A DNA stretch of 64,000 bases from a virus. The notes under the pieces were generated by a model. It was not told the origin of the DNA. It saw only the letters and a list, made by a program, of their open reading frames with translations, and made no database searches. The position numbers and the translations under genes are program-made. Location of the stretch: the IMG/VR virus record IMGVR_UViG_3300021255_002737; one strand, 5' to 3'. This document shows positions 10,261 through 62,788 of this stretch, one piece after another (within the stretch, counting starts at the first letter, position 1; every line of letters starts with the position of its first letter).

Positions 10261-10305
10261 TGTCTACTTCCTTTCATTGTATATTCCATGAGATACATCG
10301 GAATC

Positions 10306-10779
10306 CAATGGAGGAACTATAGTTTTAAACATAAGGTTTTTCCATTGTCGTTCGATGGATTCATGGTTATCTGAATAGAGGGTTCAATACTTCTGCTTGT
10401 TTAAATGATTACTTACGTCAGTAAGTATTTGCGATAGCAAATCAAACACTGTATGAACTATTTGTCTTATTAAAACAAAATAAGCTATTGATTTCATGTT
10501 GTGATTCCTATGATTTGTTTCTCATAGTTTATTCAACAATTCTTCAATAGCTTATTTTCAATTCAATAGTTTTTATAAACAGACCTTTAGAAGATTTACT
10601 AACGTAAATCATTTGCTAAAGCAAATAATATTTAATCAAGGAGGAAACCACCCAAAGGTTATTCATTATTCTCATATTAGCTCGTGAATCTCAATGAAGG
10701 AACCAAAGTTTTAACTCTAAGGATTCATCCATTGTCATCCACGAAGTCTGTATGGAGATTCAATGTATACTCTATAGTA
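10306..10779. repeat. hairpin-module cluster A (V1, U1, U2, V2, ACTATAG box)
   Basis: V1 10306-10347; U1 10410-10441; U2 10595-10625; V2 10692-10734; box 10755-10779. Homologous modules occur at 34811-35120. Confidence 0.7.
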
Positions 10780-10788
10780 CCCTCTTTA

Positions 10789-10838
10789 TTTACCCCTCTA
10801 TATATAATGTCTTTTTTGGGGCATATTGTTCGGTCAAA
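10789..10838 (-). promoter_or_regulatory. conserved P motif, copy 1 (divergent)
   Basis: ttacccctctatatataatgtc...ttgttcgg is shared with 32357-32405 and 35437-35485. On the minus strand it reads GAAC-N15-AGAC. Confidence 0.45.
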
Positions 10839-11030
10839 ATCAAAAGTTTAATCAAAGTTTTACTTAGCGTTCTAAAACATGTTCTATTTTTGCCATATTT
10901 AATGCGCCTATATGCCTTTTCTATGTGTTTTCTCAGCATATTTTGTGCAATACCAATGGACATTTATTTCAAGATACCATAGAAATATGCACAGAAGGTT
11001 ATGTCTCCTATGCATATTTGCTATAGTATC

Positions 11031-14000
11031 TTAACGGAAACCGTGTCGTTTTTGGTTATGGAGAATCGATTGGAACGCTCTTGGGTTCCTCTGGATCGCA
11101 TTCATAACATCATCACTGGATGCGTGTGTATTCAGTACAACGACATTACCAGAGCCATCGGAATTACCCATGTTCTTAATGGTATCCGTCTGCTCCTGCA
11201 TGAGCTGTTCCATGCGTGCATTCGGATTCGTCACACGGACTCCTTCGGCTCTCTTTGCTACACGTGGGGAAATCTGTGGAACATATGGTGTTGGATTCAA
11301 CGCACCACCATCGGCAAATGCACCGTAATTCATGGCATCCAGATTGTCCTTACCAATGCGGCTCGTTGCTTCCGCTGTCATGACATATTCGCCATTAGAA
11401 AGAAAAACGAACCTGTCCTTGTCCGCTAGATATGCGAGGATACTATCAGATTTACCAGTGCCAGCACCACGAATCATACCGCCGTTAGCATACGCTCTGC
11501 TCAGTAATCCGCCCATAGCATGACCACCCAGACTAATGGATGGCGTAGAACCTGCCATGAGCATTGCTTCGGTGAGTGCTTGCATCTGCAATGTCTGTGC
11601 CTGAGTTGTCACTGTATTCGTCTGGACAGCCGTTGTATTCATTGTGTCTTTCAGGTTAGAGGTCTGTGTCAACGTATTGGAAACATTGGTGAGTGCCGTT
11701 GCTTTCTGTGTGACATTACTGAGTTGACTAGTTGCTTGTACAGACTTGTTCACGGAGGATGCGAGTTCTCCACCACTGGATTTCATGGGGAAGTAATTGC
11801 CATTCAGTACACCGTTGCTCATATCAAGATAACGATTACCCGTTGCAACCTGTGTCCATCTCCTTGGTGTAGCCGTGAATCTCGACGCATTATTTGCAAG
11901 AAGTCCAACACCTGCATTGACAGCCGCGTTCTTCCCTGCATTACGATTACTGATTGCATCGTCAATCGTTGTTCTTGCATTGAACAGCCAACGGTTGACC
12001 GTCATTCTCATGATCTGTTGCAATGCAATCTTAGCAACGTCATCCCAGAGCTTTTTCCATGACTCTTTGAAGGAACTACCTTGCTTGATAATATCGAAGA
12101 ACATATCATCAATATCACTCTCAATGGTGCTCCAGAGATTCTTTGTGACTTCATCGTCCTTCTCAGCAATCTCACGGATTTTCGCTTCTGTTTCTTCGAC
12201 CTCTTTTTGTATTTTCTGGAAGTTCTCACTGCCATGCTTTGAAAGCTGGTCAATGTTTTCCTTGAGGTCTTTGGCCTTTGCCTTGAGTTCCGCAATCTTA
12301 TCCTTGGCCTCATCCGTGTTGTCGCCCTTGTATTGAGCAAGTCCCTTCTCTACGAGTTCACCCTTCTCGTTGTGCTTACCATTCTGGATATCATCAAGCT
12401 GTTCGTAGTATTCCTCAAGCTGTTCTTGGTCACGCCTACGAATATCCATGAGACTTTCCCTTTGTCTCTTTAGTCTCTCGTTGTAAATATCAATTTGAGA
12501 CTGATAGAGTTCATGGGTATCCATATACTTTTCCTCGTCAGTTTTATTGGAAGTTGTACGGTTATACCATTCCTCAAGGCGTTTCAGACGGAAGTCCTCA
12601 TCCTGTTCAGGAGTCATATAGCCATTGCGAATCTTTTCATTTACACGTAACTCAGCGAGTTTGCTATCGGCGTTGCTTAACTGCTCACGAACCTTAAAGA
12701 GGTTATCAACGAGTTTCTTGAACTCATTATCCTTCTTACTGGTTAAATCAGCGAGCTTTCTTAATTCGTCCTGTGGCATGTCATAAATGCTTTTGCCGTC
12801 GAGTTTATTTTTGATTTCTACGTGCTGATTAAGGTATTCGTCAATATCGTCCGTAAGATTATCATAGGTCTCAACCCATCCCTTACGGTTTTTCTCTACG
12901 GCTTCATAGTATGACTTTTCGCTTGCATCGTTTGCACGAAGTAATTCATAGGTATCGCCATGAATCTTCATCTGATACTCGATGTTTTTCTTCTTCGCTT
13001 CGTAGAGTTTTTGCTGACGGTCTTGGTCATAGATAGTTTCTGCAATTTGATCTCTTGTGAAATCTGCAAGGGTACTCTTGCGACCATCCCAGAAAGACGG
13101 TTTACGAATACTATTAGCATTGCCCTGCATCGGGCCATTGTGATAGCGATTCCATGCTTCGGTGCCTGTACCATCACCAACAAGAGGGCCTGATGCAGAG
13201 TCAACAGTTCTTCCGTCGTTACCCTGACCAAAGGACACATCGTAGTGAGTGCCACTTTCAACCGCGGCAGAAACACCATAATCTCCAAGAATATCTTTAA
13301 GTACTGCCCCATTATTGTCTATGGACAAGTCTGCTTTATACCCCGCATAGTGTCCCCACGGAGAATTTGAGTGTCCCGAGCCACCAGTCAACGATGTAAT
13401 GGCTAATTTTTGACCAGTTGCGGCATAATAACGGTTTGCAATGATATTGATAAGCCTACGGACGTATGGCTGTAGATTCTCAATGTTATCCCAGCTGCCA
13501 CTCATTGTGATATATCGAGAGTCAAGGCCATACATAGACTTATCATCAACATCGTAGCCGCCACTCTGGATACCATTGACATCACCAGAAGCTCCTTGTC
13601 CTTGACCAATGAGTCCTTCTGACATGATACCTCTCATGCTTGCGGCATAGTCATTAGGATTAGCCGTGAAATATCCATTGGCATACATGCCATTAGCAAG
13701 TTCCTCTGGACTAGACGGCTCAGAATCAAAGTCGTTGTCAATTGTATTGGCAAGTTTTGTTGTAAAGTTATCGTCACTACCTTCGTCTACATCTTCGCCA
13801 CCATCCATACCAGCAAAGTTGTGATTCCGTTTTGCAGCATCGCGCTTGCCACGAGCTGACTCATGCATCATGATGAGCCAATACCAGAGAGGATTCTTGA
13901 CCTTCCGTGCTTTACCAGCGGCATCTACGGCGAGTTCCCAAAGATGTGCTTCGTCTGAATCATTGCCAATGTATGCTTGACCATCGGCAGAAACAGAGCC

Positions 14001-15938
14001 ACTATAGCCACCAAGGTCATAGAGTCCACCTGCTTGCTCATTTGGATCACTGAATCTTTGGTCATTCTTATTGTAATCATAGTGATTACGGAGGAACAAT
14101 GCTTTATCGTTTAACCATGTTTTCCAGTCTTGATCCGTAATGCCAGGCGTAAGGTGTCCCAGTGCTTCTGGCACAGAGAGTCCCTGGGCAAGATATGGTG
14201 CCATCTTCTCATAAAACAAACGTCCAGATTCCCATGTATTGCGTCCACCAGTGCCAAATGGGTCAGACACACCATCGAACTCAAGAGTATTAATACCAGT
14301 CAATTTCGTGACAATAGCAGACAATGTAGCGATGTCAAGGCCATTCCTTGTATCAAAGTTGGCCTCAAACTTTTTAGACAACTCTGCAAACATCTGTGAT
14401 GTCGTGTCGCCATACTGCCAATCCTCTTTTGGGTCTTTCTTTGTGCGTTCACCGCCACTACTACCGCGCTTTTGTCTTTCACTAGGTGTACGATTATACA
14501 CGTCGCCACCAGCACCTTCACCGGAACCCCATTTTTGCAAGAAGTCATTAGGGTCATTAACAACAGGGGCACTTGTATTAAGTCCACTGGCAAGATTCGA
14601 TGCTTCCTGTGTGGCTTTATCAGCCGCCGCTATGATTTTATCGTATCCTGCATGGTATGCTTCCATATACCTGTCGCCCTTAACATCCTCTTGTGCATTT
14701 TCTGCATTTTTGCGCATTTCTGCAACTCTTTGTGTTAAATTACGATACTGTACAACCTCTGCGTTTGACATATGGTAGTCTGGGTCATTGTATCTGTCAT
14801 TCATCTCGTCAATTTTGCTTTGCAGTTCATCTGCTTGCTTCGTATAGCTATTAGCCTGTGCTTGGTCGAACTGTTCTTTCATTTGATAAAAGGCAGTATA
14901 TGCATTTGCCCAATCGCCGAGTGCCTTAATTCTATCACTAATACCATTGCAGAACTCATATGTCTCTTGTTTCCAGGTATTGAGGTTATCCTGTGCGTTC
15001 TGCCAGTTATTCAGAGCCTCTTGCTGTTTTGCCGAAATAAATTCAGCCAATGCCCTTTTCTTGTCATCCGTTGCTTTCTTATAGTTGTCCCGCACCTTCT
15101 TTGTAGAATCATCTGTCCAGTTATCCGCTTGCATCTGTTGTACAGCAGACCATCCGACAACCTGTGCCATTTGGTTCTCTGTTTCGATACGATCCTCAAG
15201 GAGTTTCTTCTTCTTCTCGTCGCTGACCGTGGAACTCTCAATCTCTGCCGTGAGCTTCTGGTGAGCAGTAAAGAGTGCATCAAGAAACTCCTCCTGCTGT
15301 GTGTACATTTCAATCTCTTGGCGCTTCACTGCCACGCTATCCTGGATTGCTTCGGTCTGTTTCTGTACGGCATTTGTACTCTCATTGATGTTGCTTGTGA
15401 GTGCTTCAAGACCAAGGTCAAGTGCAAGAGAGACACCGAATGTTGCGGTGGCTTTCAGTAAACTAATACTGTTCTTTAGTGAAATGATAGCGGCTTTCAG
15501 TCCCCCTGCTGCTGTTGTTGCAGCAGCAAAGGCTGTTGACATGTTACTGATTGTCGCTGTTGCACCACTTGCTGTAATCATGTTTAACGATGTACGAACC
15601 ATTCTCATAGCTCTGTTTACAGCGTACATGATAGCAGCTAATTTCACCATGCTACCAAGGAAACTGTATGTGGATGTACTGACCGTAGACAGGTAATGTG
15701 CCAGATTATCTAATTCCGTAACGCATTCCTTGAGCCATTCGGTAAGGCCACTGTTGCCACCTTGTGCAACCATACCAGTCAAGTCGGCCTTGAGTTTATT
15801 AATGCGACGAGACAGGGAATCCATCTGGTTTTTCACCTGGTTATCCGTGAATCCCATGGAATTGACAGCAAGGCCCCAGTTCTTGATGATTTCCTGATAG
15901 TTACTGAACATTGCTGCTGCTTTTGCCCATTGAAACTT
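11031..15938 (-). CDS. tape measure protein, exon 2 (1635 aa)
   Basis: Hydrophobic segments, long coiled coil, glucosaminidase-like block (MMHESARGKRD...NFAGM), LAS/M15-like block (GHSNSPWGHYAGYKADLS), and a TMP C-terminal motif (GTGKSDSILAYL..GEYVMTAE). Confidence 0.85.
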   Translation of the reverse strand, partial: KFQWAKAAAMFSNYQEIIKNWGLAVNSMGFTDNQVKNQMDSLSRRINKLKADLTGMVAQGGNSGLTEWLKECVTELDNLAHYLSTVSTSTYSFLGSMVKLAAIMYAVNRAMRMVRTSLNMITASGATATISNMSTAFAAATTAAGGLKAAIISLKNSISLLKATATFGVSLALDLGLEALTSNINESTNAVQKQTEAIQDSVAVKRQEIEMYTQQEEFLDALFTAHQKLTAEIESSTVSDEKKKKLLEDRIETENQMAQVVGWSAVQQMQADNWTDDSTKKVRDNYKKATDDKKRALAEFISAKQQEALNNWQNAQDNLNTWKQETYEFCNGISDRIKALGDWANAYTAFYQMKEQFDQAQANSYTKQADELQSKIDEMNDRYNDPDYHMSNAEVVQYRNLTQRVAEMRKNAENAQEDVKGDRYMEAYHAGYDKIIAAADKATQEASNLASGLNTSAPVVNDPNDFLQKWGSGEGAGGDVYNRTPSERQKRGSSGGERTKKDPKEDWQYGDTTSQMFAELSKKFEANFDTRNGLDIATLSAIVTKLTGINTLEFDGVSDPFGTGGRNTWESGRLFYEKMAPYLAQGLSVPEALGHLTPGITDQDWKTWLNDKALFLRNHYDYNKNDQRFSDPNEQAGGLYDLGGYSGSVSADGQAYIGNDSDEAHLWELAVDAAGKARKVKNPLWYWLIMMHESARGKRDAAKRNHNFAGMDGGEDVDEGSDDNFTTKLANTIDNDFDSEPSSPEELANGMYANGYFTANPNDYAASMRGIMSEGLIGQGQGASGDVNGIQSGGYDVDDKSMYGLDSRYITMSGSWDNIENLQPYVRRLINIIANRYYAATGQKLAITSLTGGSGHSNSPWGHYAGYKADLSIDNNGAVLKDILGDYGVSAAVESGTHYDVSFGQGNDGRTVDSASGPLVGDGTGTEAWNRYHNGPMQGNANSIRKPSFWDGRKSTLADFTRDQIAETIYDQDRQQKLYEAKKKNIEYQMKIHGDTYELLRANDASEKSYYEAVEKNRKGWVETYDNLTDDIDEYLNQHVEIKNKLDGKSIYDMPQDELRKLADLTSKKDNEFKKLVDNLFKVREQLSNADSKLAELRVNEKIRNGYMTPEQDEDFRLKRLEEWYNRTTSNKTDEEKYMDTHELYQSQIDIYNERLKRQRESLMDIRRRDQEQLEEYYEQLDDIQNGKHNEKGELVEKGLAQYKGDNTDEAKDKIAELKAKAKDLKENIDQLSKHGSENFQKIQKEVEETEAKIREIAEKDDEVTKNLWSTIESDIDDMFFDIIKQGSSFKESWKKLWDDVAKIALQQIMRMTVNRWLFNARTTIDDAISNRNAGKNAAVNAGVGLLANNASRFTATPRRWTQVATGNRYLDMSNGVLNGNYFPMKSSGGELASSVNKSVQATSQLSNVTQKATALTNVSNTLTQTSNLKDTMNTTAVQTNTVTTQAQTLQMQALTEAMLMAGSTPSISLGGHAMGGLLSRAYANGGMIRGAGTGKSDSILAYLADKDRFVFLSNGEYVMTAEATSRIGKDNLDAMNYGAFADGGALNPTPYVPQISPRVAKRAEGVRVTNPNARMEQLMQEQTDTIKNMGNSDGSGNVVVLNTHASSDDVMNAIQRNPRAFQSILHNQKRHGFR

Positions 15939-16200
15939 CAATTTGTTACTCATAAAAAATAAGCCATAGCTTATCATTACGGGTACGGTCATTTCTGCCG
16001 TACTCTCACGTTTTATTTCATGACTATATCGTGAGTTCGGACTATACATTCATCCCTCGACTTTACGTTAGGGAGGCTATTTGTAGTCTCTACGGTTCCC
16101 TATATAGGTTTTACCACGGTCTTGTCCTGTCATTAGGAGTTTAACCGTTATTAAAGCATACTAATAATATATTTCTATATTATGCGGCAAGTTTAGGTCT
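15939..16200 (-). ncRNA. group I self-splicing intron, 262 nt, no ORF
   Basis: P/Q/R/S elements are present in order. P1 has a U.G wobble at the 5' splice site; there is a 6-bp P10, an omega-G, and in-frame exon ligation. Details are in the findings. Confidence 0.8.
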
Positions 16201-18363
16201 ACCGCCACTCATTTGAATCCAGAGGTCTTTCAGGTTTTTGTTTGTCCCTTGGGCAGCAACAGCAACATCCATTAAGACAGCCTGTGCAGAGCGAACTTTG
16301 GTGACACCATTGACAACCTCTGTGGTTGCAATGCCGAGCTTATTGAGTTCCTTTACAGCCTTATCGCTATTGAACGATGCAAGCATTGTCTTGAGCATAT
16401 TACCAATTTCCGAACCACTCAATGCCGTTGCACGAGTACCTTGAGCAATGAGTGCATTAAGGAACTCGAAGGAGATTCCTGCCTGTTTAGCGACCGAACC
16501 AGAGCGTTCTACGCCAGCTGCAAGGTCTTGAGCAGAGACACCTGCATTGTGAGATAACTTGGTATATACATCGACAATCTTATTGGAATATGCCAATGCT
16601 TCTGCACTGTTCTTTGCAACAAGTCCGTACTGGAACATAGCTGCTTCTACGGCCTTTGTGGACTCTGCCATAGAGAAGTTATCGGCAACAGCCAGTTTTG
16701 CTGATTGAGAAACCAATGTATTGACCGTTGCTTGGTCTTTGTACATACGTCCCCAAAGTCTTGCAGATTCCATAACATCCTTTACAGACTCACCGTATGC
16801 GCTTGCCGTGTTAATGAGTGCTCGTTGCTCCTCTTGGTATTTCTCAATGGCTTCAGACGATTTACCTTCAAGCTGCGGCATGACCGTTGCCAAGTTATGC
16901 ATTTCCTCATCGAGTTTAACAAGAGAATTGAATGTTTCCGTTGGAACTGCAAAAGCCGCACCAAGCAATGAACCTGCGGTAATCCAATACAGATGACTAC
17001 GCAATTTCTGTTCAAACGACGCAAACTTTTTTGAAGGTTCAGTGTTGTTCACGTCTTTCTGGAAAGCCTCATACTCTTTCCGTACAGCTGCAAGGCTCGC
17101 TTTAACGTTATCCAGTGCGGCCTTATTTGCAGCAGTAGGATCGCTTTTCCAGAGGGCATAGACTCTCTGTTGAACATCTTCAAGTCTACGAAGTTCCCTT
17201 GTATACGATTGGATACCCTCTGCCCATTTACCAGTTGGATCAACTGGCTGTACAGAAGGTGTAGTTGGTGCAGGATTCTTTGTTGTGTTCATACTTCTCT
17301 GATAGGCTTCTTGTTCTGCCCTTACCTTTGCAATGGTAGTAGCAAGTTTATCAAGGTTTTGCCTTGCTTCCTGTGAGCCATCGTGTCTCCAGACGATATA
17401 CATCTGCTCCTGCAATGCCATCAACCGTGATAATTCCTGGGAATACGTCCTGAGTCCAGTTGACCATGCTTCAAGGTTCTTCTGCATAACAGCCTTGTTT
17501 TGTGCTTCGGAATTGTTGAATGAGCTGAATGGAGACGTGAATGTCTTTGCTCCGCCGATTTTCTGATATTCAGCAAGGAGTTGATTGAACTGTTTCATTG
17601 ATAACTCAAAGTCTGCTCTCTTGACCTGCTGTCCACGTTCCATAGCAAGAGTCTGTCTATCAATGATCCTTTCGATTTGTGTCTCAAGTTCTGCACGACG
17701 TTTTAACTCATCAATAGCAGCCTGAGTACTCCACTTATATGTCGAGTAGTTCTCACTATTGTAAACATTGTCACGAGCAATACCATATTCTCTGAGCTTT
17801 GTAATGACCTCATCCAACGCATTTCTGCGGTTATACCATGTAGATTCAGGAATGAGCTTATTGTTACTCTGGGCAATCGAAAGAGTGCGTGTTAACTGCT
17901 CGTACTTCTTGAGTAATTTATCAATAGCTTCATTGTCTTTAATAGCAGCTTCCTGCATCTTCGTCATGTCCTGAACAAGGTTATTGAAAGAGCTTGCCTT
18001 GATATTTTTCAGGGTATCTTCCAGAGTCTTTTCAAGGGAACGTAAAGACTGCTCTGTCTGCTCTACACCATTAACTTTAATGGATGCGCCCTTGTTCAGC
18101 AACTCAATGCCACGCTTAACCTCACGCAAATCCTCACTGATCGTGTGAAGGTTTGATTTGAAGTTATCATTAACACCAATATTTACATTGGAATTATTCA
18201 GTTTATCAACGAAATTCTTTGCACTTTCGAGGGATTTCTTGACACCCTCAATTTTATCCGTGCCATTGGCAATGATATTGATTTCATATACCAACTGTTG
18301 TTTGTCTGCCATTTTATCCCTCCAATTTGACATAAAAAAATAAGGGATACCATGTTTTACCAC
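16201..18363 (-). CDS. tape measure protein, exon 1 (721 aa)
   Basis: TP901-type TMP core (ATVMPQLEG...ASAYGESVKDVMESARLWGRMY). The last 6 codons and stop of the ORF-track ORF lie in the intron. Confidence 0.85.
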
Positions 18364-29814: not shown

Positions 29815-29889
29815 TGGAGCTACCAGCAGGAATTGCACCCGCGTCCATGGTGTACAAGGCCATTGTTCTGCTTATTGAACTATGGTAGC
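29815..29889 (-). tRNA. tRNA-Thr(UGU)-like, CCA encoded
   Basis: 75 nt. 7-bp acceptor GCTACCA/TGGTAGC; D stem GTTC/GAAC; anticodon loop CTTGTAC; T stem GCGGG/CCTGC. Atypical T loop (TGCAATT) and no GG in the D loop. Confidence 0.55.
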
Positions 29890-30837: not shown

Positions 30838-31613
30838 ATAACACCATACCTTTCAAAGAAACATTCCTTATTCTCGACAACAATCACAAGACGTTAACCT
30901 TGCTTTTGCTATAAAATAACGGCGAGCGACAGGGAAGGAATGGTAAAACCTGTCAATGGGGAGCTACCCCGACTCGCCGGTATAAACAAATAAACATAAA
31001 ACTACACTGGAAAATAAGGTTTCCCTTTATGTCCTCATGTTCTGTGTTATTGTGTTACGAGCAATACAAGTCTGAGCAACGACTAGCAACTTTCGCGCTT
31101 CTTGCACTAGGAGCTAACTCCCCTATGACTCGACAGGACTATGACCTGCATCTTTCATTCATCATTCAGAAATGATATGCTTTTTCTAACCAATATTATG
31201 CAGATTGAACTACTCTACCTATCTACTTCCGTTATAGCTGCGGTTAAACAGCGTCACTGCAATACCTGTTTGATTGGGTTTATACCTATGGTTAGACCAT
31301 GTGAACCCAGACACATGATTTCATAGGCGACCGTATTGGTGCTTGCACAGGCCGGAAGGGACGGACACTACACTCGACATGATTCACACATATCCCAACA
31401 AGATAAGCTCTTTGAACTCTCATCGGCATAATCGCTTACGTCAACTAATGAATGGTACAGGCTATCGTCTATATCATCCATTTCTCTTAACAGGGATATT
31501 CTCAGCGGACTGACAATCCTCTGCACTGAGTTATCTTCCAGTACAGTTTTATGTCTATTTATAATGGTGGGGATGGTTTAATTGGACACATCCCCATAAA
31601 AATAAAATATTAC
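30838..31613. ncRNA. candidate large structured non-coding RNA (776 nt)
   Basis: No credible ORF; many nested GC-rich helices; one gene away from the tRNA cluster. Confidence 0.35.
30881..30909 (-). repeat. 29-nt box upstream of an antirepressor gene (copy a)
   Basis: caatcacaagacgttaaccttgcttttgc matches 32229-32257 at 28 of 29 positions. Confidence 0.7.
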
Positions 31614-32304: not shown

Positions 32305-32342
32305 CATAATAAAAGGACACGGCAAGGGGGCAAACCGTGTCC
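32305..32342 (-). terminator. leader terminator just downstream of P motif copy 2
   Basis: Minus strand reads GGACACGG-tttgcccccttg-CCGTGTCC followed by TTTTATTATG. Confidence 0.55.
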
Positions 32343-32356
32343 AGAGTGTAATTAAA

Positions 32357-32405
32357 TTACCCCTCTATATATAATGTCGAAAAATGGGGGTAATTGTTCG
32401 GTAAA
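32357..32405 (-). promoter_or_regulatory. conserved P motif, copy 2 (candidate late promoter)
   Basis: Minus strand has GAAC (32399-32396), then N16, then CGAC (32379-32376). An ACCCC/GGGGT inverted repeat flanks the -10 region. Confidence 0.5.
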
Positions 32406-32419
32406 ACGCAAAATTTTTT

Positions 32420-32659
32420 TTATTTTTTCTTGATTTTTTTATCAAGAGCGGATTTTAATAGCTTTGAACGCCTAGATGCTATCATTGCACGTTGAATAAG
32501 CTCGTCTTTAGAGTCAGAATCGGGCATATTTTCTATCATTGTAGCTGCTATGTCATACGGTACGCGCATCACAAGGCACTCGCTGCCACAATCTGCAAAA
32601 CAACTAATGTTGTCATACATAGAGCTTTTCACATCCTGTATGTTCTTGAATCGTATCAA
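32420..32659 (-). CDS. hypothetical protein
   Basis: 79 aa with a basic C-terminus. The true start may be the internal Met, because of the 47-nt overlap. Confidence 0.45.
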   Translation of the reverse strand: MIRFKNIQDVKSSMYDNISCFADCGSECLVMRVPYDIAATMIENMPDSDSKDELIQRAMIASRRSKLLKSALDKKIKKK

Positions 32660-33566
32660 GCAATTCCTTCATTCCCAGCTTGTCCATGCAATACTTGTAC
32701 AACATAGGATGTGTTTTAGACAATCGGACAAACCTACGTCTATCACCCTTTTCTAAGTGGCAACCAATCGGGCAAAACACACATCCCGTCCTGTCCTCTC
32801 CTGTTGTGGCATATTTCCCGTTCTTATCCTTTACAATGTCGCCATAAACACTAGGAATCTTCACATGACGAGTAACAATGTATTCCAATACATCTTGTTC
32901 TGTCCAAAAGCTCATGGGCTTAGACGATGGGTCTTTAGCGTCAAACGCATTGCAGCCATGTCGAATCCATGCGTTATGCCTAAGTCTAGATTCACACGCC
33001 ATAGTTGCTAACATTGGCTTTGTCCCTGTTTGTTTCATGTATTTATGACCGGGCTTCTTTTTCATAACAGTGCAACAATATGGACTGATTTTAATTGGCG
33101 AATCTACCAGCCATGCCCATTTCATCTTATTCTTACACCAAGGGTTGCTGTGTCCCTCTTTATCGAGCCCATGAAATACATTGATTGCCCATTGGGAACC
33201 CTTGCGCCCATAGTAAATAGTCATTGCAACCTCTTTTGAAGGATATACCCATCCTTCGTCTTGAATTACCTGAAGAAAAGATTTCTCTGGACGAATGATA
33301 ACAATATTGTCAAATGACTTCACATGATCTTTAACCTCGGGGAACTCCAAACCAGTGTCTACGAATACCCCTTTGATGTCAGGAAACATCTCGCGCGCAA
33401 TATCCATCAGTACAGAGGAGTCCTTGCCACCGCTGAATGACACGTAGACATTGCCATTGTAATGATTGTACCATTCAGTGATTCTCAGCTTTGTCAGTGT
33501 AATTTTGTCATCAAGGGGAAGTGCCTGTAATTCCCTTAGCTCATCACTTGAGTGTTTCATCGTCAT
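32613..33566 (-). CDS. PAPS reductase/PP-loop ATPase family protein
   Basis: YVSFSGGKDSSVLMDI PP-loop; C-terminal CVFCPIGC. Confidence 0.75.
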   Translation of the reverse strand: MTMKHSSDELRELQALPLDDKITLTKLRITEWYNHYNGNVYVSFSGGKDSSVLMDIAREMFPDIKGVFVDTGLEFPEVKDHVKSFDNIVIIRPEKSFLQVIQDEGWVYPSKEVAMTIYYGRKGSQWAINVFHGLDKEGHSNPWCKNKMKWAWLVDSPIKISPYCCTVMKKKPGHKYMKQTGTKPMLATMACESRLRHNAWIRHGCNAFDAKDPSSKPMSFWTEQDVLEYIVTRHVKIPSVYGDIVKDKNGKYATTGEDRTGCVFCPIGCHLEKGDRRRFVRLSKTHPMLYKYCMDKLGMKELLDTIQEHTGCEKLYV

Positions 33567-33738
33567 CGTCTACCTCAATTCCGATTTTTACAATGGCAGA
33601 AACGAAGAAAATCAGGAGCATGTTAATGAGAATCAGGGAAACACATACGGTTGCACGGAACATCTCTACACTATTCGCGCAAACCATAGCAACGACCATC
33701 ATGATCGCACCAATTAACAATACCATTACGTTATTCAT
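33544..33738 (-). CDS. small membrane protein
   Basis: 64 aa with two hydrophobic helices. Confidence 0.5.
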   Translation of the reverse strand: MNNVMVLLIGAIMMVVAMVCANSVEMFRATVCVSLILINMLLIFFVSAIVKIGIEVDDDDETLK

Positions 33739-33916: not shown

Positions 33917-34573
33917 TTATGGTTCATATTCTTCTGCAATCCTCGACAACCTTCCACGGAAGTTCCGTGTCAGCTCAACCTTACGTCCAATGTGTTCAAC
34001 CATGTAATTGCCATAGTCGACAAAGCAATGTTCCTTGTCGCCTGGATTGTCACTCTGACGGGAATCACCTAATAACACACATTTAGAATCATCATGAATG
34101 CGCGTCAGGACAAGACGCAGGTCACTCACGCCCATATTCTGTCCTTCGTCGATGATAACAAGGCAATCCATGAGGTTTACGCCGCGAAGGTTATTGTCTG
34201 TAATAAGCATGACCTGTTCTGTATTGACGAGTGCCTGAATATCTCTCTGTGAAAAGCCAAGGACTTCCAGTGCATCGTATGCAGCATAATATAACTGCGC
34301 TGTTTTCTGCTCAAGGTCTCCCGGTAAATATCCGTTGGCATAGCTGCGTTTTGATGGTTTGATGATATAGATGATTTTACTGATAACTCCATTGGCGAGC
34401 ATATCAACCCCCGCAGCAAATGCAACGGTTGTTTTACCAGAACCAGCCTTGGCTTCCACAAACGTAAATGGAACCTCAAGGATGCTATCGAACATCACAT
34501 GTTGTTCATTGGACATCCTTTTGTAAAACCTGTCACGATCCTTGTTGAACAGCGGAATTTCTTTGTCATTCAT
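33917..34573 (-). CDS. phoH: PhoH-like ATPase
   Basis: Walker A AKAGSGKTT; Walker B VIIDEGQN; LGDSRQSD motif. Confidence 0.8.
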   Translation of the reverse strand: MNDKEIPLFNKDRDRFYKRMSNEQHVMFDSILEVPFTFVEAKAGSGKTTVAFAAGVDMLANGVISKIIYIIKPSKRSYANGYLPGDLEQKTAQLYYAAYDALEVLGFSQRDIQALVNTEQVMLITDNNLRGVNLMDCLVIIDEGQNMGVSDLRLVLTRIHDDSKCVLLGDSRQSDNPGDKEHCFVDYGNYMVEHIGRKVELTRNFRGRLSRIAEEYEP

Positions 34574-34810
34574 GTCTTGTCCTCCTGCAAATAAAAAAGA
34601 CCATAGTATCCCATTTCAGAGACATCCTATGGTCTTACCTTGGTACATCTATAGTATATACATTGTATATACTATGTGTATCAATGGATATTATTGTATT
34701 CTATTGTTAAAACCTATGAAATACATCCATAGTTCTTCTAACGTCATTCAATGATTTGATTGAAAGAGTATAGTCTTATCAATGGACACATGGTTTATAC
34801 AGTGTTCTGA

Positions 34811-35120
34811 TTTGCTATCGCAAATACTTGCTAAAGCAAGTGAATCTATTTAATCAAGGGAAGGTTTGGAACCATCATTGCACTCACATTGCTTACTCAT
34901 TAACCCTATGTCTATCATTGTTATCAACGGAGGAACTATGGTTACTATCTAAGGTTCTATCGTTGGTATCAATGTATTCTATAGACACTCAATGGATACT
35001 CAATGTATTACTATGTACTCTCATTGTCTGTCTGTTTATATTATTTGCGAAGCAAATGATTCACGAAGTGAATCTTCTAAAGGTCTGTTTACAGAGATTC
35101 AATGTATTCTATAGTATCTC
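34811..35120. repeat. hairpin-module cluster B (U1', V, U2', ACTATAG box)
   Basis: U1' 34811-34841; V 34925-34965; U2' 35044-35072; box 35094-35120. Homologous to 10306-10779. Confidence 0.7.
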
Positions 35121-35436
35121 TATGGTCTCCCCTATAACCCCAAAAGGGTATATTTTCCCCCACGACTTCCCTTTCTTTTCTCTTTACCCTGTCACTGCCG
35201 CCGTGAAGGTTCCAATGCATGACTCTGATTTGCACCATGCAGGTAAAGAGGAAATAGCCCGACTTCCTACAGTCAGGCAAGGAATATTCTGGGAGATGTC
35301 AACATCTTCCAAGGGAAAGAAAAGAGAAAAGACAAGGCTCATTCCTGTGTACCTGATACCAGTGTACGGCGGTTCCACCCTGTCCAGATTGAGAGAACAG
35401 TCACGCTGTCAACGAGTGACAATGAGGTCAATAAAA

Positions 35437-35485
35437 TTACCCCTCTATATATAATGTCGAAAAATGGGGGTATTTGTTCGGTAAA
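35437..35485 (-). promoter_or_regulatory. conserved P motif, copy 3
   Basis: Nearly identical to 32357-32405 over about 60 nt. Confidence 0.5.
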
Positions 35486-36100
35486 TCTCAAAAAAAATAC
35501 AAAAAATTTTTTCAAACCTCTACAATGCCGTGTATGCTCATTTAGGTATCACCTGTATCACCATGCTCAAACCGTTGATTTACAAGGCTTTACGGCGATT
35601 CTACGGTGTTATGGCAATGGATTCCCTTGTTTCACCCTCGATAAACCCTTGTGGCGTAAGGGTTTGCGGTGTATTTCACTGAAATCATGGGATTTCCGCA
35701 GAGATGCGTAAAATTTCCACTGAGGTGCGCGGTTTGTGCTGTGACTATGCGGGCGATTTTACTGAGAACGTTTCCCATATTGGTACACGCAAAAGCACCC
35801 ACCATGTCCGCGTCTAGTGTACAATTCAATGTGATTCTCGCGAATCCCTTATATATAGCCATTCTTAACATCATATTACTATATGTTATCACATGTATAT
35901 TCTGATGACAACATAATATGATAACGTATCTCATTGAATGACATTGATATACATTGTAATTCCGATGACTACAACAATGCGCTGCTGTTCGAGTTAATGG
36001 CTGTCCGTTGATAACATATGAATAACCATTCATATATCAGTGGTATAGAACGCGCGTCAATCAGAATGCATTCTTATACATTCAATGTATATCTATACAA

Positions 36101-36235
36101 TCTCATTGCAATCTCATTGCCCTACACTAGATATTCATTGTAATCCAGTGCCTTACATTGGAATTTCATTGCCCTGCACTAGAGTCTTATTGTAAACTAA
36201 TTACTTACATTGGAATTTCATTGGCTGCCATTGAT
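36101..36235. repeat. iteron-like array: about three 52-bp direct repeats, each with three (C/T)ATTG cores
   Basis: Cores start at 36104, 36115, 36136, 36156, 36167, 36188, 36208, 36219 and 36229. Spacings are 11, 21, 20, 11, 21, 20, 11 and 10 bp. Confidence 0.65.
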
Positions 36236-36286
36236 CCATTCCGCTGCATAAATCCATTTAATCAAATTGAATTTAGAAAAACAAAT

Positions 36287-36517
36287 TCATTGATCCACAT
36301 CGCGCTTGCGTCGGAAAACAATCTCATATCCTAGAATATCCAGGATATTGTCAATCTCATTAGCTCTTATACTACCTTCATTAATTTTTCGATTAAATGA
36401 CTGCTGATTGTACCTAGTGTTATATTGTCTGTTATATTCTTCTCCAAAAGATTTTAATGAATAACCATTATCTGTTATTAAGTGTTTTATTCTTGTACTT
36501 AACATTGTATTATACAT
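36287..36517 (-). CDS. XRE-family HTH regulator
   Basis: LSTRIKHLITDNGYSLKSFGEEY...; divergent from the plus-strand block. Confidence 0.6.
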   Translation of the reverse strand: MYNTMLSTRIKHLITDNGYSLKSFGEEYNRQYNTRYNQQSFNRKINEGSIRANEIDNILDILGYEIVFRRKRDVDQ

Positions 36518-36649
36518 CCCCTATTACATACTATACATGTATGTATTGTATACTTATTGATATGTTATGTGTCTATTCATACTGTACATCTGTTTTGAAG
36601 CCTTTTTGAAATACTGCGATATAAAGAGCATTTGCGAGATATTTGAAGT

Positions 36650-36716
36650 ATAACAACGATTTTCGTAGTAAATACAACATTTTACGATGTGCAGTACAAC
36701 GTTTTTTGTAGTATAC
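36650..36716. promoter_or_regulatory. three tandem operator-like repeats
   Basis: ACAACGATTTTCGTAGTA, ACAACATTTTACGATGTG and ACAACGTTTTTTGTAGTA, between divergent genes. Confidence 0.5.
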
Positions 36717-36806
36717 TTTAGTTAAAGATAAAGAGAGAGACAAAGAAGTAAGACAAACAAATAATATAATACTAACTCTATTATATCAAATTAGGAGTGA
36801 TTTGTC

Positions 36807-37187
36807 ATGAAGAAAGAGCTGGATCTTTACACAGAATTAAACAACAACCGTCTCTGGCTGACAGAAGGCAAGATCACGAGCCGTGAAGCTCGTGAAGTCG
36901 TTGAAAAAGCCATGTTCTTCATCAGTACTATGCCAGATGACGAGAAAAAAGACGTTCTCGTCGATATGGCTGAAAGCGTCAAGGCGATGCTTGATGTTAC
37001 GTATGTGTTTTGGTGCAAGAATGGTAGTTACTTTGAAGAAGACAGAAAAGCCCTTGTCGCTGAGTGCCGTGCTAGTGATGTTACCTATGAGGTTGGTATG
37101 GATCCATTGGCAGCCGTGCAGGCCGCTTGGAAGAAAAAGGGACTCAAGGATGACCCATTCTTTCCCGTCGATTACTTTGTTGCTTAA
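36807..37187 (+). CDS. hypothetical protein
   Basis: 126 aa; RBS AGGAGTG. Confidence 0.6.
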   Translation: MKKELDLYTELNNNRLWLTEGKITSREAREVVEKAMFFISTMPDDEKKDVLVDMAESVKAMLDVTYVFWCKNGSYFEEDRKALVAECRASDVTYEVGMDPLAAVQAAWKKKGLKDDPFFPVDYFVA

Positions 37188-43057: not shown

Positions 43058-43278
43058 AACATATATTGACATATAGAATTATTGGAGAACCTGAGTATGA
43101 TTCTAAAAGGCAAAGAAAATGGCGTTCAGAGGGTTATTGCCTTGAAACAGATCACAGGGTATGGGTGCTGTATAACCTTGGGGAACGTCCATTGATACGA
43201 ACAATGAAGGACAAGGTTATTAGGTCTGCAGCGGAAAGGAGATGGGAACACTATGGGAAGCACGAGTTTATGGCATGA
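43054..43278 (+). CDS. hypothetical protein
   Basis: ATG at 43054 (RBS GGAGG). Confidence 0.5.
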   Translation: MKHILTYRIIGEPEYDSKRQRKWRSEGYCLETDHRVWVLYNLGERPLIRTMKDKVIRSAAERRWEHYGKHEFMA

Positions 43279-44047
43279 CTTCCTGGACGATGTCCATGCA
43301 ACAAAGTCAGAGAACACATACAAAAGCTATCAGAATGCCCTGCGGTATTTCAAGGATGGTTCACTAGAGGAAATTAGGGCGTTTCTAGGCAATGACCTTG
43401 CGGATAGTACTAAAAAACAAACGCTTAGAATCCTTTGTATTGCCCTTGAATACAATGACATGTATGATAATGCTCGTAGAAAACTCATCAAATCATATAG
43501 GCCGAACATTGTTATACAGGAGTGTCCTACGGATAAGGACATAGAGCTTGTATGGGACAATCTATTGACACACAGGGACCGGGCCATGTTCGCCCTGATG
43601 GCTTACAATGGGTTGCGCGTTGGTGAAGTCGCTGGATTCAACGTGGATGATTTACTGAGTGGGGATAGATTGATGCTGCGGAATACCAAAGGAAAACACG
43701 ATGCTATCATCCCATTGGTTCATCCGCGTGTCCTGTCTAGTCTCAGGGCATATATTAAGGAAAGAAAAAGTACATCCCCTGCCCTGTTCTTGAATCACAG
43801 AGGGGCACGCATAAGCTCTAATGGGCTTACTCAGCTGATTCGTAACGAGTTTCATGACAATGGTTTGCCATTCCATGCACATAGCCTGAGAAGGTACTTT
43901 GCTAACACATTGTCAAGGAATGGGATTCCAGTGCAGGATATACAGGTAGCCATGCGTCACGCCAACATTGTAACGACAATGGGATACTTGAATATTGATG
44001 AAGATAGGACGAAAAGTGTATTACAGGAGGTTTATCATGCAATATAA
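43253..44047 (+). CDS. XerC/D-like tyrosine recombinase (second recombinase)
   Basis: 264 aa. RDRAMFALMAYNGLRVGE, HAHSLRRYFAN, MRHANIVTTMGYL. Confidence 0.8.
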   Translation: MGSTSLWHDFLDDVHATKSENTYKSYQNALRYFKDGSLEEIRAFLGNDLADSTKKQTLRILCIALEYNDMYDNARRKLIKSYRPNIVIQECPTDKDIELVWDNLLTHRDRAMFALMAYNGLRVGEVAGFNVDDLLSGDRLMLRNTKGKHDAIIPLVHPRVLSSLRAYIKERKSTSPALFLNHRGARISSNGLTQLIRNEFHDNGLPFHAHSLRRYFANTLSRNGIPVQDIQVAMRHANIVTTMGYLNIDEDRTKSVLQEVYHAI

Positions 44048-45739: not shown

Positions 45740-45777
45740 AACAAGGACTACCATTAAGATAGCCCTTGTTTTTTTTA
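45740..45777. terminator. bidirectional intrinsic terminator between convergent operons
   Basis: AACAAGG-17 nt-CCTTGTT, with T-runs on both strands. Confidence 0.65.
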
Positions 45778-46326
45778 TTGCTTGCGTTTGCAGTTTTGAC
45801 AATAGGTACAAAAGGATTCACAATTCTGGGACTTGAGATATTCAGGAAGGTGGCAACGGACTTTCCCATCTGGATCAGTGACATTTCTTGCAACGTCCAT
45901 TGGATACCGTAGCTTATCCTTTGGCGTCGTAGCGAATAACATAGGTGAGTCCTTTTTCAGCAAGGTGCGTAACTCAGGTTTTACCTTGGAAATACGCTGC
46001 ATATGCCGTATAACAGAGCTGCGTGTGTAATGAAGTTCTCTTGCAATCTGCTCTTGGGTAAATCCCCTAGCTGTCATTAAAAACATCTGCCAGTCATCGT
46101 CTGAGAGGTTTGCTTTTAGGTCACAGAGGGTTTTCATGAGTTCCGCTTTCTTCTCTTGGTTCACCAATACGCTACATGGTTCCTCTCCAGACTCAACGTA
46201 ATCCATTGGCATAACATTGGACTTATTCTGGCTCCAATCCATGTAATTGATTCGACGTTGGAGATCATTGACATCAATGCGCCCCGCATTGTAGTCGTCA
46301 AGGAATTGCTCGATTGCATCCTTCAT
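45775..46326 (-). CDS. sigma-70 region-4 / ArpU-RinA-like late transcription regulator
   Basis: LSDDDWQMFLMTARGFTQEQIARELHYTRSSVIRHMQRI; C-terminal Cys cluster CESFCTYCQNC. Last gene of the early operon. Confidence 0.5.
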   Translation of the reverse strand: MKDAIEQFLDDYNAGRIDVNDLQRRINYMDWSQNKSNVMPMDYVESGEEPCSVLVNQEKKAELMKTLCDLKANLSDDDWQMFLMTARGFTQEQIARELHYTRSSVIRHMQRISKVKPELRTLLKKDSPMLFATTPKDKLRYPMDVARNVTDPDGKVRCHLPEYLKSQNCESFCTYCQNCKRKQ

Positions 46327-59726: not shown

Positions 59727-60200
59727 TTACCAGTAAATAACCTTGTTTGTATTGGCATATTTAGCTGCACACACCATGTATCTATTCTTGAACGCCCTTA
59801 CGAATGCTGTTTTAGAGCCATTCACACTCTGGCACAGGGATACTACATCTTCACTCGACATTACTAAATTAAGTGGATATTCTGGCGAGAACGGTATGGT
59901 CACAAGATAGTCATTGTGATTATTGGTCATTCTTTCAATACCACATCCATCAATCGAACGAATAAAATCCGAACAACTCTCGATTGTCATATCTATGTGA
60001 TAAGGCAAGCATAATACGTCGATTGGGATGTCGAAGATTTTAGACATTTTAATAATGTTGCCAAGTCTAGGCTCTCGTTTTCCTTGTTCATAACACGAAT
60101 AGGCCTGTAAAGTAATTCCAAGTTTCTCAGCGACTTCTTTACGCTTCATCCCAGAACGCTCTCTAATTTCTCTGAGTCTGTTTGCGAATACCATATCCAT
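59727..60200 (-). CDS. XRE-family HTH regulator with C-terminal domain
   Basis: FANRLREIRERSGMKRKEVAEKLGITLQAYSCYEQGKREP. Start at 60200 (GGGGGG RBS; TAATG overlap). Confidence 0.65.
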   Translation of the reverse strand: MDMVFANRLREIRERSGMKRKEVAEKLGITLQAYSCYEQGKREPRLGNIIKMSKIFDIPIDVLCLPYHIDMTIESCSDFIRSIDGCGIERMTNNHNDYLVTIPFSPEYPLNLVMSSEDVVSLCQSVNGSKTAFVRAFKNRYMVCAAKYANTNKVIYW

Positions 60201-60388
60201 TAATAATTCCCCCCATACATCCAATGACGCTTGATTACTTCTTCACATGGTGTATAATACTCAGGAAAATCTACGTACGCCTTATTGCAGAGGACATTCA
60301 TCTTGCACTTTGAACAATCCGCTGCCTTGCTATATTCCTTTGCCGCAATATCCAATGCATCCATTGATTTCTTCAAGAAATCATCCAT
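60200..60388 (-). CDS. small Cys-containing protein
   Basis: 62 aa. Confidence 0.45.
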   Translation of the reverse strand: MDDFLKKSMDALDIAAKEYSKAADCSKCKMNVLCNKAYVDFPEYYTPCEEVIKRHWMYGGNY

Positions 60389-62397: not shown

Positions 62398-62788
62398 GTT
62401 GGCACAGTCTGAGCATATCATAGTGGAACCCGCAGACTTTCCTTATCCACTTCGCGGCATTTACATTGACGATGGAAAGATGAAGCTGATTGGCATAGCA
62501 AAGGATATTGACACATTGGCAGAACGACGTTCTGTCCTTGCCGAAGAACTTGGTCATCACTTCACATCCGTTGGAAATGCAACGATATGCCATTGTTATG
62601 CAGATCGTATCTCTATTGACAAGACAGAGCACAAAGCCATGGTCTGGGCATGTCATTACCTTGTTCCAGAGCATGACTTAGACAAGGCTGTACAAATAGG
62701 GCATGTATCTTTGTCTGACTTAGCAGAATACTTTACTGTCACGGAAAGATTCATGGCATTTTGTATTAAGCTGTACAAAGGTGATTGA
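62381..62788 (+). CDS. ImmA/IrrE-like (DUF955) protein with variant metal motif
   Basis: LAEELGHHFTS stands where HEXXH is expected. Position directly after the repressor gene. Confidence 0.5.
   Translation: MERMIELAQSEHIIVEPADFPYPLRGIYIDDGKMKLIGIAKDIDTLAERRSVLAEELGHHFTSVGNATICHCYADRISIDKTEHKAMVWACHYLVPEHDLDKAVQIGHVSLSDLAEYFTVTERFMAFCIKLYKGD

Follow-up and report, generated by a model that had tools for sequence, protein, structure and literature searches.

Why should a temperate phage keep 1.7 kb of DNA that holds no gene, and what do the paired hairpins within it do? The question arises from positions 34574–36286 (region B) of a 64,000-nucleotide stretch of viral DNA, IMG/VR record IMGVR_UViG_3300021255_002737, the whole of which was analysed and is referred to here as the window. 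A preliminary description had noted hairpin modules in region B that recur in rearranged order, with stem-preserving changes, at 10.3–10.8 kb, and had proposed that structure is being selected, whether as RNA or as cruciform DNA. The proposal is borne out by conserved pairing in 17 versions of the modules, which are twin hairpins, two in region B and two in region A (10261–11030), and whose loops point to single-stranded DNA hairpins of defined polarity rather than to RNA. The likeliest of the readings considered, which we hold tentatively, is that they are strand-specific DNA hairpins acting as priming or entry signals at two origin-like regions within transcribed late-operon leaders.

Twin-hairpin modules and their pairing

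Each module consists of two abutting hairpins, one constant and one variable, and the four modules are:

34797–34864, minus strand: B1, type-1 twin hairpin, with hairpins at 34810–34825 and 34826–34841, flanks ATACAGTGTT and TTTAATCAAGGGAAGG, and G..A loops on the minus strand
35043–35091, plus strand: B2, type-2 twin hairpin, with hairpins at 35043–35057 (containing GCGAAGC) and 35058–35074, the conserved flank TTCTAAAGGTCTGTTTA, and G..A loops on the plus strand
10410–10442, plus strand: A1, type-1 twin hairpin of region A (TACTTAC-gtca-GTAAGTA and ATTTGC-gata-GCAAAT), inverted relative to B1
10576–10644, minus strand: A2, type-2 twin hairpin of region A, with hairpins at 10593–10626 and its flank, then TTTAATCAAGGAGG

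Both hairpins of B1 (ATTTGC-tatc-GCAAAT and ACTTGC-taaa-GCAAGT) and of B2 (ATTTGC-gaa-GCAAAT and GATTCAC-gaa-GTGAATC) are present as the preliminary description had them, and every sequence that it quoted was found in place. A scan for abutting perfect hairpins (stem of at least 6 bp, loop of 3–5 nt) recovers these four pairs in regions A and B, compared with a mean of 0.009 in 2000 shuffles, and no others in the 64 kb. In single-strand folding each module forms a twin hairpin, with z scores of −4.1 to −6.6.

Pairing was assessed in an alignment of 17 distinct module versions from nine genomes, the window and eight relatives; loops were padded, since MAFFT misaligned the second hairpin. The relatives are the prophage of Mitsuokella multacida DSM 20544 (also present as a 77-kb IMG/VR contig) and seven sequences from IMG/VR and human-gut metagenomes. 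All 13 stem pairs (13/13) are standard in 211/211 cells, without a single G-T wobble, and in a control in which the partner was slid by 1–3 columns only 26–37% of cells are paired. In four stem pairs both partners have changed, and in no pair has just one of them; one of these double changes, found in L010 and L044, turns the basal A-T pair of the constant hairpin into G-C, and the other three fall in the variable hairpin, so that the compensating changes claimed from the window itself hold with the relatives added. Orthologous module sites were all recovered intact, and there is therefore no selection bias in the pairing count. Apart from one outer pair, the constant half-site ATTTGC/GCAAAT does not vary, and the variable palindrome has four half-site sequences that are always perfectly symmetric; the loop sequence is free, and loops of orthologous sites can be either 3 or 4 nt long. 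The modules are at the same two loci in every relative covering them, with the exception of B2 in the DSM 20544 lineage, and a covariance model, run on the window with filters off, recovers nothing there beyond the four sites, and in 99 other loci nothing but their orthologues. The preliminary description had staked its claim on presence in relatives and on pairing that holds as copies are added, and both points stand.

The symmetry could also be that of double-stranded operators bound by a dimeric phage protein, either the 76-amino acid (aa) helix-turn-helix (HTH)-like product of 36287–36517 or the HTH_3 repressor encoded at 59727–60224, with arrays of CATTG as further sites and the whole acting as a transcriptional switch. 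The near-invariant ATTTGC/GCAAAT half-site would fit this, as would the location of region B between divergent transcription units and beside the small HTH-like gene. So would the 2.4-fold enrichment of CATTG/CAATG (17.5 per kb in region B, as opposed to 6.5–8 per kb in genes) and its 10–11 bp phasing. Window-wide, CAATG and CATTG are the two commonest pentamers of the 64 kb (237 and 229 copies; z 5.0 and 3.9 relative to Markov expectation), and are equally common on both strands and across all gene blocks. However, a dimeric operator is unlikely, because the spacing shifts by 1 bp (3 or 4 bp within orthologous sites) and because both half-sites always change together, leaving the second palindrome symmetric through all four of its half-sites; the suggestion that HTH proteins act on the palindromes is accordingly disfavoured. 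Furthermore, the 76-aa gene is hypervariable while the hairpins are unchanged, as are the iteron-like repeats in L018, and a recognisable lysogeny module of repressor, Ant and integrase lies 25 kb away at 59.7–63.9 kb. Operators of an immunity region were rejected on this lack of co-variation and on the location of the lysogeny genes. The 76-aa gene itself (36287–36517, minus strand) has 40–48% nucleotide identity among the relatives with no indels, between flanks of 70–95%, and has no family match.

Loops and strand polarity

The loops follow a simple rule. When read by eye from the alignment of the 17 versions, 30 of the 34 loops begin with G, end with A and are closed by a C-G pair, the fitting loops being GAA, GATA, GTAA, GTCA, GCTA and GTTA. 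The rule is strand-specific. On the assigned strand, on which the variable hairpin comes first in type-1 modules (B1 and A1; flank ATACAGTGTT) and the constant hairpin first in type-2 modules (B2 and A2; flank TTCTAAAGGTCTGTTTA), 11 of the 14 distinct loop states fit, and on the opposite strand none does (0/14). It has held through at least ~10 loop changes, and the modules offer a clear-cut natural case of loops evolving under a G..A constraint. The constant hairpin on the assigned strand reads GCGAAGC, GCGATAGC or GCGTAAGC, and fits GCGNAGC or GCGNNAGC in 15 of the 17 versions. These are the sequences of mini-hairpin DNA, which is extraordinarily stable as DNA, with RNA versions much less so; its reported occurrences are those in the priming origins of the phages G4, St-1 and alpha3, in RSF1010 ssiA and in the N4 hairpin promoters (PMC13037366). 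Judged by these loops, the hairpins most likely form as GC-GNA-GC or GC-GNNA-GC mini-hairpin DNA, with one module on each strand in each region.

The main rival explanation is that the hairpins are RNA stem-loops in long late-operon leaders, in which a promoter-like box (see below) is the late promoter, and a ~320-nt element together with the stem-loops modifies RNA polymerase or the transcript, by processive antitermination of the put/canT/conAn type or by protection from RNase, allowing read-through of the PhoH terminator and later ones. The loops do not favour this. The RNA GNRA rule is met by only one of the five tetraloops (GTAA) and broken by the other four, and no G-U pairs are found in the 211 cells. 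In addition, relative to transcription the twin hairpins of region A point the other way from those of region B, and within a single region the G..A loops of the two modules lie on different strands (minus in B1, plus in B2; plus in A1, minus in A2). Because the two module types lie on opposite strands in each region, one leader RNA cannot explain the opposite-strand loops, and no sigma-70-like plus-strand site was found upstream of A1 or B2. The twin hairpins were also considered as intrinsic terminators and rejected, as their stems are A+T-rich and have no T-run; terminator features are present only at 34590–34636 and 32306–32342.

Mosaic organization of the related regions

Region A is smaller than region B and ~24 kb from it. 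It contains further shared segments in addition to A1 and A2, and there is a third related site, region C, that had been missed previously:

10303–10347, plus strand: V module, copy 1 of region A
10689–10833: right part of region A, with V copy 2 (10689–10735), the TATAG box (10755–10779) and box A (10790–10833)
32306–32400, minus strand: region C, with box C (32357–32400), then a hairpin (32342–32315) and U-run

Longer alignments between the regions had been noted, and local blastn aligns 34635–34876 with the reverse complement of 10378–10607 (E 2e-15) and 35038–35108 with the reverse complement of 10560–10631 (81%, E 3e-10), while 35055–35136 matches 10719–10800 in direct orientation. The view of the two regions as mosaics with some modules inverted is thus supported by matches in both orientations and by the eight relatives. 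A2 is a hybrid, flanked on one side as in type 2 and on the other by the TTTAATCAAGG sequence of type 1. Region C was detected as a match of 35385–35493 to 32305–32413; its hairpin and U-run begin 14 nt after box C, and there is a compensatory change at the base of the stem in L024. The best explanation is that regions A and B are paralogous non-coding control regions of a temperate Mitsuokella siphovirus.

Such a mosaic could also result from selfish or neutral palindromic repeats, similar to REP/BIME or BOX elements, that are shuffled by recombination at palindromes and whose pairing is kept by propagation or by hairpin-templated repair. The mosaic module order and hybrids such as A2 are consistent with this, as are an 86-bp deletion that takes out B2 and the coincidence of module edges with rearrangement points (e.g. 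the joint of a cassette deletion in L024 at the edge of box C). Nonetheless, the copies number only four and stay at two fixed loci throughout the eight relatives; neither the rest of the window nor the 99 other loci contain one (the host chromosome was not scanned), and orientation and presence are not polymorphic apart from the one deletion. No HUH or RAYT-type transposase was found among the proteins scanned, and the loop rule is kept through all of the loop changes counted above. We consider selfish repeats unlikely, placing them above the operators. An invertible segment was rejected, as there is no orientation polymorphism and all eight relatives are collinear with the window across regions A and B.

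The cassette absent from L024 is PAPS-reductase-like (32392–33571), and its deletion joint is exactly at the box C edge; the upstream 64-aa membrane-protein open reading frame (ORF) of L024 reads through box C to its TAA. The box was considered as a coding remnant and this was rejected, as an ORF runs into it in L024 only.

Region B is non-coding and transcribed leftward

Region B was described as gene-free and as the longest non-coding stretch of the window, and both hold: by the ORF table it is the longest ORF-poor stretch, and frameshifting indels break every one of its ORFs in relatives. In an alignment with four relatives each ORF has 5–19 indels, nearly all of which are not multiples of 3, whereas the flanking PhoH start and the 76-aa gene have none. 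None of the internal ORFs matches a PHROG or Pfam family, which together with the indels rules out protein coding. The region is conserved in eight related genomes, with 80–97% identity over the whole 1.7 kb in three relatives and 50–80% in the DSM 20544 lineage. Regions A and B are the A+T-richest kilobases of the window (33% G+C), and region B is at a strand switch and at the cumulative GC-skew minimum. An Rfam search gave no match with E < 0.5 in 34400–36800, and in the rest of the window only ROOL and a tRNA match. Apart from B1 and B2, region B contains:

34590–34636, minus strand: terminator with a 13-bp stem (34597–34609 and 34624–34636) and T-run, ending 4 nt before the PhoH Shine-Dalgarno sequence
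34651–34675, no strand given: perfect A+T-rich palindrome ATAGTATATAC-att-GTATATACTAT
34925–34965, plus strand: V module, an imperfect hairpin with CAACG/CGTTG closing and GGAGG in its 5′ arm
34967–34986, plus strand: first copy of the TCAATGTATTCTATAG box
35094–35120, plus strand: GAGATTCAATGTATTCTATAGTATCTC (TATAG) box, which with 35088–35093 forms a sigma-70-like TTTACA-16-TATAGT
35116–35436, strand not assigned: structured element (~320 nt), conserved and G+C-richer
35437–35485, minus strand: invariant box, with CGAACA (35480–35475), 18 nt, CATTAT (35456–35451) and ATATAGAGGGGTAA
35500–35830, no strand given: block conserved in relatives, non-coding, with a hairpin at 35642–35666 (stem kept, loop free)
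35932–36223: A+T-rich zone of iteron-like repeats, with a 10-bp CATTGATATA in 2.5 copies and a 52-bp unit in 2.3 copies (36104–36223)

The minus-strand order is therefore the promoter-like box, the ~320-nt structured element, the hairpin modules, the terminator and PhoH. Of these the preliminary description had recognised the hairpin modules, and did not describe the box, the conserved terminator, the ~320-nt element or the iteron-like repeats.

The PhoH-side terminator is kept in all relatives, with a double change of C-G to A-T in L018 and L024, and shortened to 8 bp with a T-run in L015 and L044. Because this minus-strand terminator is conserved, region B appears clearly to be transcribed leftward, and with a terminator ahead of it the expression of PhoH would therefore need read-through. 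The neighbouring palindrome at 34651–34675 is rearranged or partly deleted in L015 and L016, yet a palindrome of other sequence is kept. Relative L016 (3300045988_121598) also has ~1.4 kb inserted between the non-coding region and PhoH (L016 4600–6000), which is not in the window.

Within the box, a 21-mer, ACATTATATATAGAGGGGTAA on the minus strand, is present in three exact copies across the window (10790, 32357 and 35437; 0 expected), and the box is invariant in all relatives, in the same arrangement and with each copy ahead of a minus-strand late gene block. On that strand it has A/T tracts, CGAACA and a 17–18-nt spacer upstream, and CATTAT inside; in a distant phage (L003; IMG/VR 2834101283_000005) the core is preceded by GTCACA at 16 nt. 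One of its copies there is 94 nt upstream of a ROOL RNA and then three tRNAs, and another sits in the gap separating the tape-measure gene from the tail gene after it, where a strong hairpin and T-run follow. We infer from this layout that the box is a phage-specific late promoter pointing leftward. A reading as a plus-strand TATAAT promoter was rejected, there being no −35 element and no good terminator. A 20-mer shared with the region, TTACCCCTCTATATATAATG, heads a conserved ~140-nt repeat in at least 14 short contigs of the Chloroflexota metagenome-assembled genome JALYUO01 (L094–L108), several of which have a long gene starting ~50 nt past the GGGGTAA side; this may be coincidence or a shared promoter type, with about one chance family expected in 596 Gb, and is not used as evidence.

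The structured element is the best-conserved block of region B. Its consensus fold has z scores relative to column shuffles of −3.7 on the plus strand and −5.2 on the minus strand (−46 and −64 kcal/mol, respectively), although for the core (35160–35345) the plus strand is favoured (−4.1 versus −2.4); single sequences give a z of about −2 on both strands, and the wobble evidence favours different strands in different helices. Compensating double changes are clear in two places: CTTTACC/GGTAAAG becomes CTTTACG/CGTAAAG, and the hairpin at 35292–35311 is replaced by a different stem in L015. A long-range helix between 35176–35185 and 35322–35331 was rejected, as the double change in L016/L018 shifts the register by one in a polypyrimidine/polypurine tract and is not clean covariation. 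Scans with a 22-mer conserved in the element return the same four viral contigs and no others, and the element is confined to this phage group.

Much of this organization favours the leader-RNA explanation. There are three copies of the promoter-like box, each before a minus-strand gene block, and in the distant phage the box precedes ROOL and three tRNAs in one place and a strong terminator and gene in the other. The conserved, compensated terminator comes so close to the PhoH ribosome-binding site (4 nt) that a further promoter would not fit between them; a hairpin and U-run lie 14 nt past box C; and the ~320-nt element has a significant consensus fold that is better overall on the minus strand. 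Long structured antitermination leaders are known in mobile elements, e.g. the 452-nt canT in Tn916 (PMC11658703), and this phage encodes a weakly sigma-like or Xpf-like protein at the end of the early block. On the other side, region C has the box and terminator but no modules, and likewise the covariance model finds no modules in the distant phage that has the box. Taken with the polarity and pairing of the loops, these points make a leader RNA on balance rather unlikely as the role of the hairpins, and we rank it second.

The products might instead be plus-strand non-coding or antisense RNAs, one of them running from TTTACA-16-TATAGT (35088–35115) across the structured element, with the V hairpins and GGAGG boxes acting on the plus strand. 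The V module had been proposed to show a double compensatory change, and the closing pairs do differ as described, CAACG (34925–34929) and CGTTG (34961–34965) in region B compared with CAATG...CATTG in both copies of region A; however, the hairpin is weaker than stated, and the L015 lineage has not retained its inner helix. Folding of the hairpin is better on the plus strand owing to G-T wobbles, which would be A-C mismatches on the minus strand. The V module, the TTTAATCAAGG box, the TATAG box (confirmed in both regions) and the invariant box are all plus-oriented in both regions, and the plus-strand z of the element core is consistent with such an RNA. Against this, there is no convincing plus-strand terminator, the conserved terminators are on the minus strand, the element as a whole folds better on that strand, and the V inner helix is lost as noted. 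We regard plus-strand RNAs as the least probable of the explanations considered.

The iteron-like repeat zone varies strongly between relatives, and its 52-bp units carry CATTG every 10–11 or ~20 bp. A perfect 13-nt inverted repeat, TGTTATCAACGGA (34919–34931) and TCCGTTGATAACA (36004–36016), is present with 1072 nt between its arms (~0.03 expected by our own estimate); it looks like a repeated sequence motif and not a helix, because the arms do not co-vary in relatives. Beyond the 76-aa gene, a 22-bp tandem repeat, ACAACGATTTTCGTAGTAAAT, is present in 2.9 copies (36653–36713) in the divergent promoter region between that gene and the plus-strand block, and a strong sigma-70-like site, ATGACA-17-TATAAT, is at 36808–36780 on the minus strand.

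Genome context

By sequence comparison the window is a relative of the ~77-kb Mitsuokella multacida prophage. A 20-mer of region B has two occurrences in the M. multacida DSM 20544 chromosome, the sequence being identical to the 77-kb IMG/VR contig, and no close phage was found in GenBank, by DNA or by two proteins. Profile searches and the ORF table indicate a large temperate phage of siphovirus type, with the following organization:

34.5 kb down to 1 kb, minus strand: late and structural genes (PhoH, PAPS-reductase-like, terminase through tape measure, tail fibre)
36.8–45.7 kb, plus strand: small-gene block
62.7–45.8 kb, minus strand: early and replication block
59727–60224: HTH_3 repressor
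62785–63894: integrase (profile searches)

The early block encodes HTH_3 repressor-like, Ant/Bro, T7-type single-strand binding, RusA, NrdDG, RNA ligase and dUTPase products, and a 675-aa primase-helicase with CHC2 zinc ribbon, DNAG_N, Toprim and DnaB_C domains. It is closed by a 183-aa protein (45775–46326, minus strand) with weak similarity to sigma-70 region 4, ECF and Xpf-like proteins, all below curated cut-offs, and a C-terminal cysteine cluster; it is a candidate late-gene activator. A second tyrosine recombinase of 264 aa (43253–44047, plus strand) is XerA/XerC/XerD/integron-integrase-like, also below curated cut-offs. In the late region the tape-measure-like protein is in two ORFs of 727 and 1672 aa (16180–18363 and 11031–16049, minus strand) with ~130 bp between them, and a ROOL RNA (215 bits; 30997–31554, minus strand) lies upstream of tRNA-Thr (29815–29889, minus strand). 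The presence of ROOL varies among close relatives, and L007 and L089 have 177 bp compared with 635 bp in the window.

Hairpins as proposed DNA priming signals

We infer from these patterns that the modules form as DNA rather than RNA and have a priming or origin function. First, the A+T-rich region would be opened by transcription from the adjacent promoter box, by protein bound to the nearby iteron-like repeats, or by both. Second, the hairpins would extrude, remain free of the phage T7-type single-strand binding protein, and provide an entry or priming site for the DnaG-type primase fused to a DnaB-like helicase. Third, synthesis would begin on both strands. The scheme follows that of the complementary-strand origin of phage G4 and of ssiA/ssiB at RSF1010 oriV. 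Priming at DNA hairpins accounts for the inversion of modules, the loops on opposite strands, the DNA loop rule and the lack of G-U pairs, which the leader-RNA explanation does not, and it matches the phage primase-helicase and single-strand binding protein, the A+T-richness and the iteron-like repeats. We therefore place it first and the leader RNA second, and note that both may coexist in one locus.

Several observations weigh against priming by DNA hairpins. Regions A and B are ~20 kb from the replication genes, and no origin-binding initiator was recognised among the phage proteins scanned. Region A has no tandem repeats or clear iterons and sits within the tail gene block, and the GC-skew minimum at region B is confounded with gene orientation. 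GCGNAGC-type heptamers are not rare, with ~30 expected per window by our own base-composition estimate. A CTG lies 3′ of the hairpins in most versions but not in L005, L010 and L044, and as a primase start site beside the hairpins it was rejected, not being conserved. The loss of B2 by deletion in the L015/L044/L102 (DSM 20544) lineage indicates that the pair is not indispensable, and as the module versions are phylogenetically related the loop counts overstate the independent events. Finally, RNA hairpins also form, because the regions are transcribed on the minus strand (conserved terminator), and these could be the selected form.

The fuller statement is possible but doubtful: that in a temperate double-stranded DNA siphovirus of a Gram-negative-type Firmicute, two dispersed origin-like regions admit the phage's own primase-helicase by way of strand-specific DNA mini-hairpins of the G4/RSF1010 ssi type. 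With the box, the ~320-nt element and the terminator, the locus would then couple late transcription to replication initiation. In a bolder variant, the folded hairpins would be attC-like single-strand recombination sites for the Xer-like recombinase (43253–44047), which would explain the shuffling of modules.

If the modules serve for priming or entry as DNA, the logic of single-strand initiation known from small single-stranded phages and from IncQ plasmids would also apply to a large temperate phage from the human gut, and the two regions would be candidate origins for a phage group without a cultured model. If they are RNA elements, they would be part of a new leader system that governs read-through to the late genes. 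Either way, the promoter-like box, the ~320-nt element, the PhoH terminator and the evolution of G..A loops are testable in the prophage of the culturable M. multacida DSM 20544. The elements of the region match no database family and occur in a single phage group; mechanisms of the kinds proposed here are already known.

Comparison with known systems

REP/BIME elements and pneumococcal BOX elements are present in tens to hundreds of copies per genome. The modules resemble them as short, intergenic palindromes in mosaic order and either orientation, but differ in having four copies at two fixed loci.

The put site of phage HK022 has two adjacent stem-loops. The promoter-like box, structured leader and conserved terminator occur here in the order seen with HK022 putL/putR, lambda nut boxB, canT and conAn2 RNAs. 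However, the modules are in both orientations relative to transcription and not in a fixed orientation as in HK022 put, and are ~33 nt rather than ~70 nt; the loops follow the DNA stability rule and not an RNA rule, and there is neither homology nor an Rfam match. Tn916 canT and pLS20 conAn2 are non-coding leader RNAs between promoter and terminators in mobile elements (PMC11658703).

The modules are also similar in part to the hairpin promoters of the phage N4 virion RNA polymerase, in which a stem of 5–7 bp carries a loop of 3 nt (GAA or GGA) with a C-G closing pair, and which are extruded from the duplex and read on one strand (PMC13037366). B2 fits this geometry, but many copies here have 4-nt loops and the hairpins are in abutting pairs. 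N4-type promoters were rejected, as there is no ORF for a giant N4-type RNA polymerase; ORFs of more than 750 aa encode only tail proteins (tail fibre and tape measure), with ~13 kb of the genome outside the window.

Paired regions are found in P4 (ori and crr) and SPP1 (oriL and oriR), in which two separated, non-coding or partly coding regions have the same repeated motifs and one is away from the replication genes; P4 uses a primase-helicase. Here also two separated regions share motifs, but the shared modules are hairpins with no initiator recognised, unlike the iterons of P4 and SPP1 that are bound by a known initiator. An iteron-type origin has an array of direct repeats, bound by an initiator, beside an A+T-rich unwinding zone; region B has 52-bp (×2.3) and 10-bp (×2.5) repeats and 33% G+C, the repeats vary strongly between relatives, and no initiator was recognised.

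In RSF1010 oriV the two ssi sites are carried by different strands, beside iterons and A+T-rich DNA, and phage G4 has a CTG start triplet 3′ of its hairpins. The window differs from both in that it is from a double-stranded DNA temperate siphovirus and not a single-stranded phage or IncQ plasmid, and from the iteron-type ssi setting in that no initiator is recognised. The stems here are A+T-rich and of 6–7 bp, they are in two separate regions without sequence homology to those systems. The points in common are short hairpins side by side whose template strand bears a mini-hairpin motif, GCG(N)NAGC or CCGAAGG, as at the origins of G4, St-1 and alpha3 and at ssiA and ssiB of RSF1010 (PMC13037366), and a primase of the DnaG type, here encoded by the phage itself.

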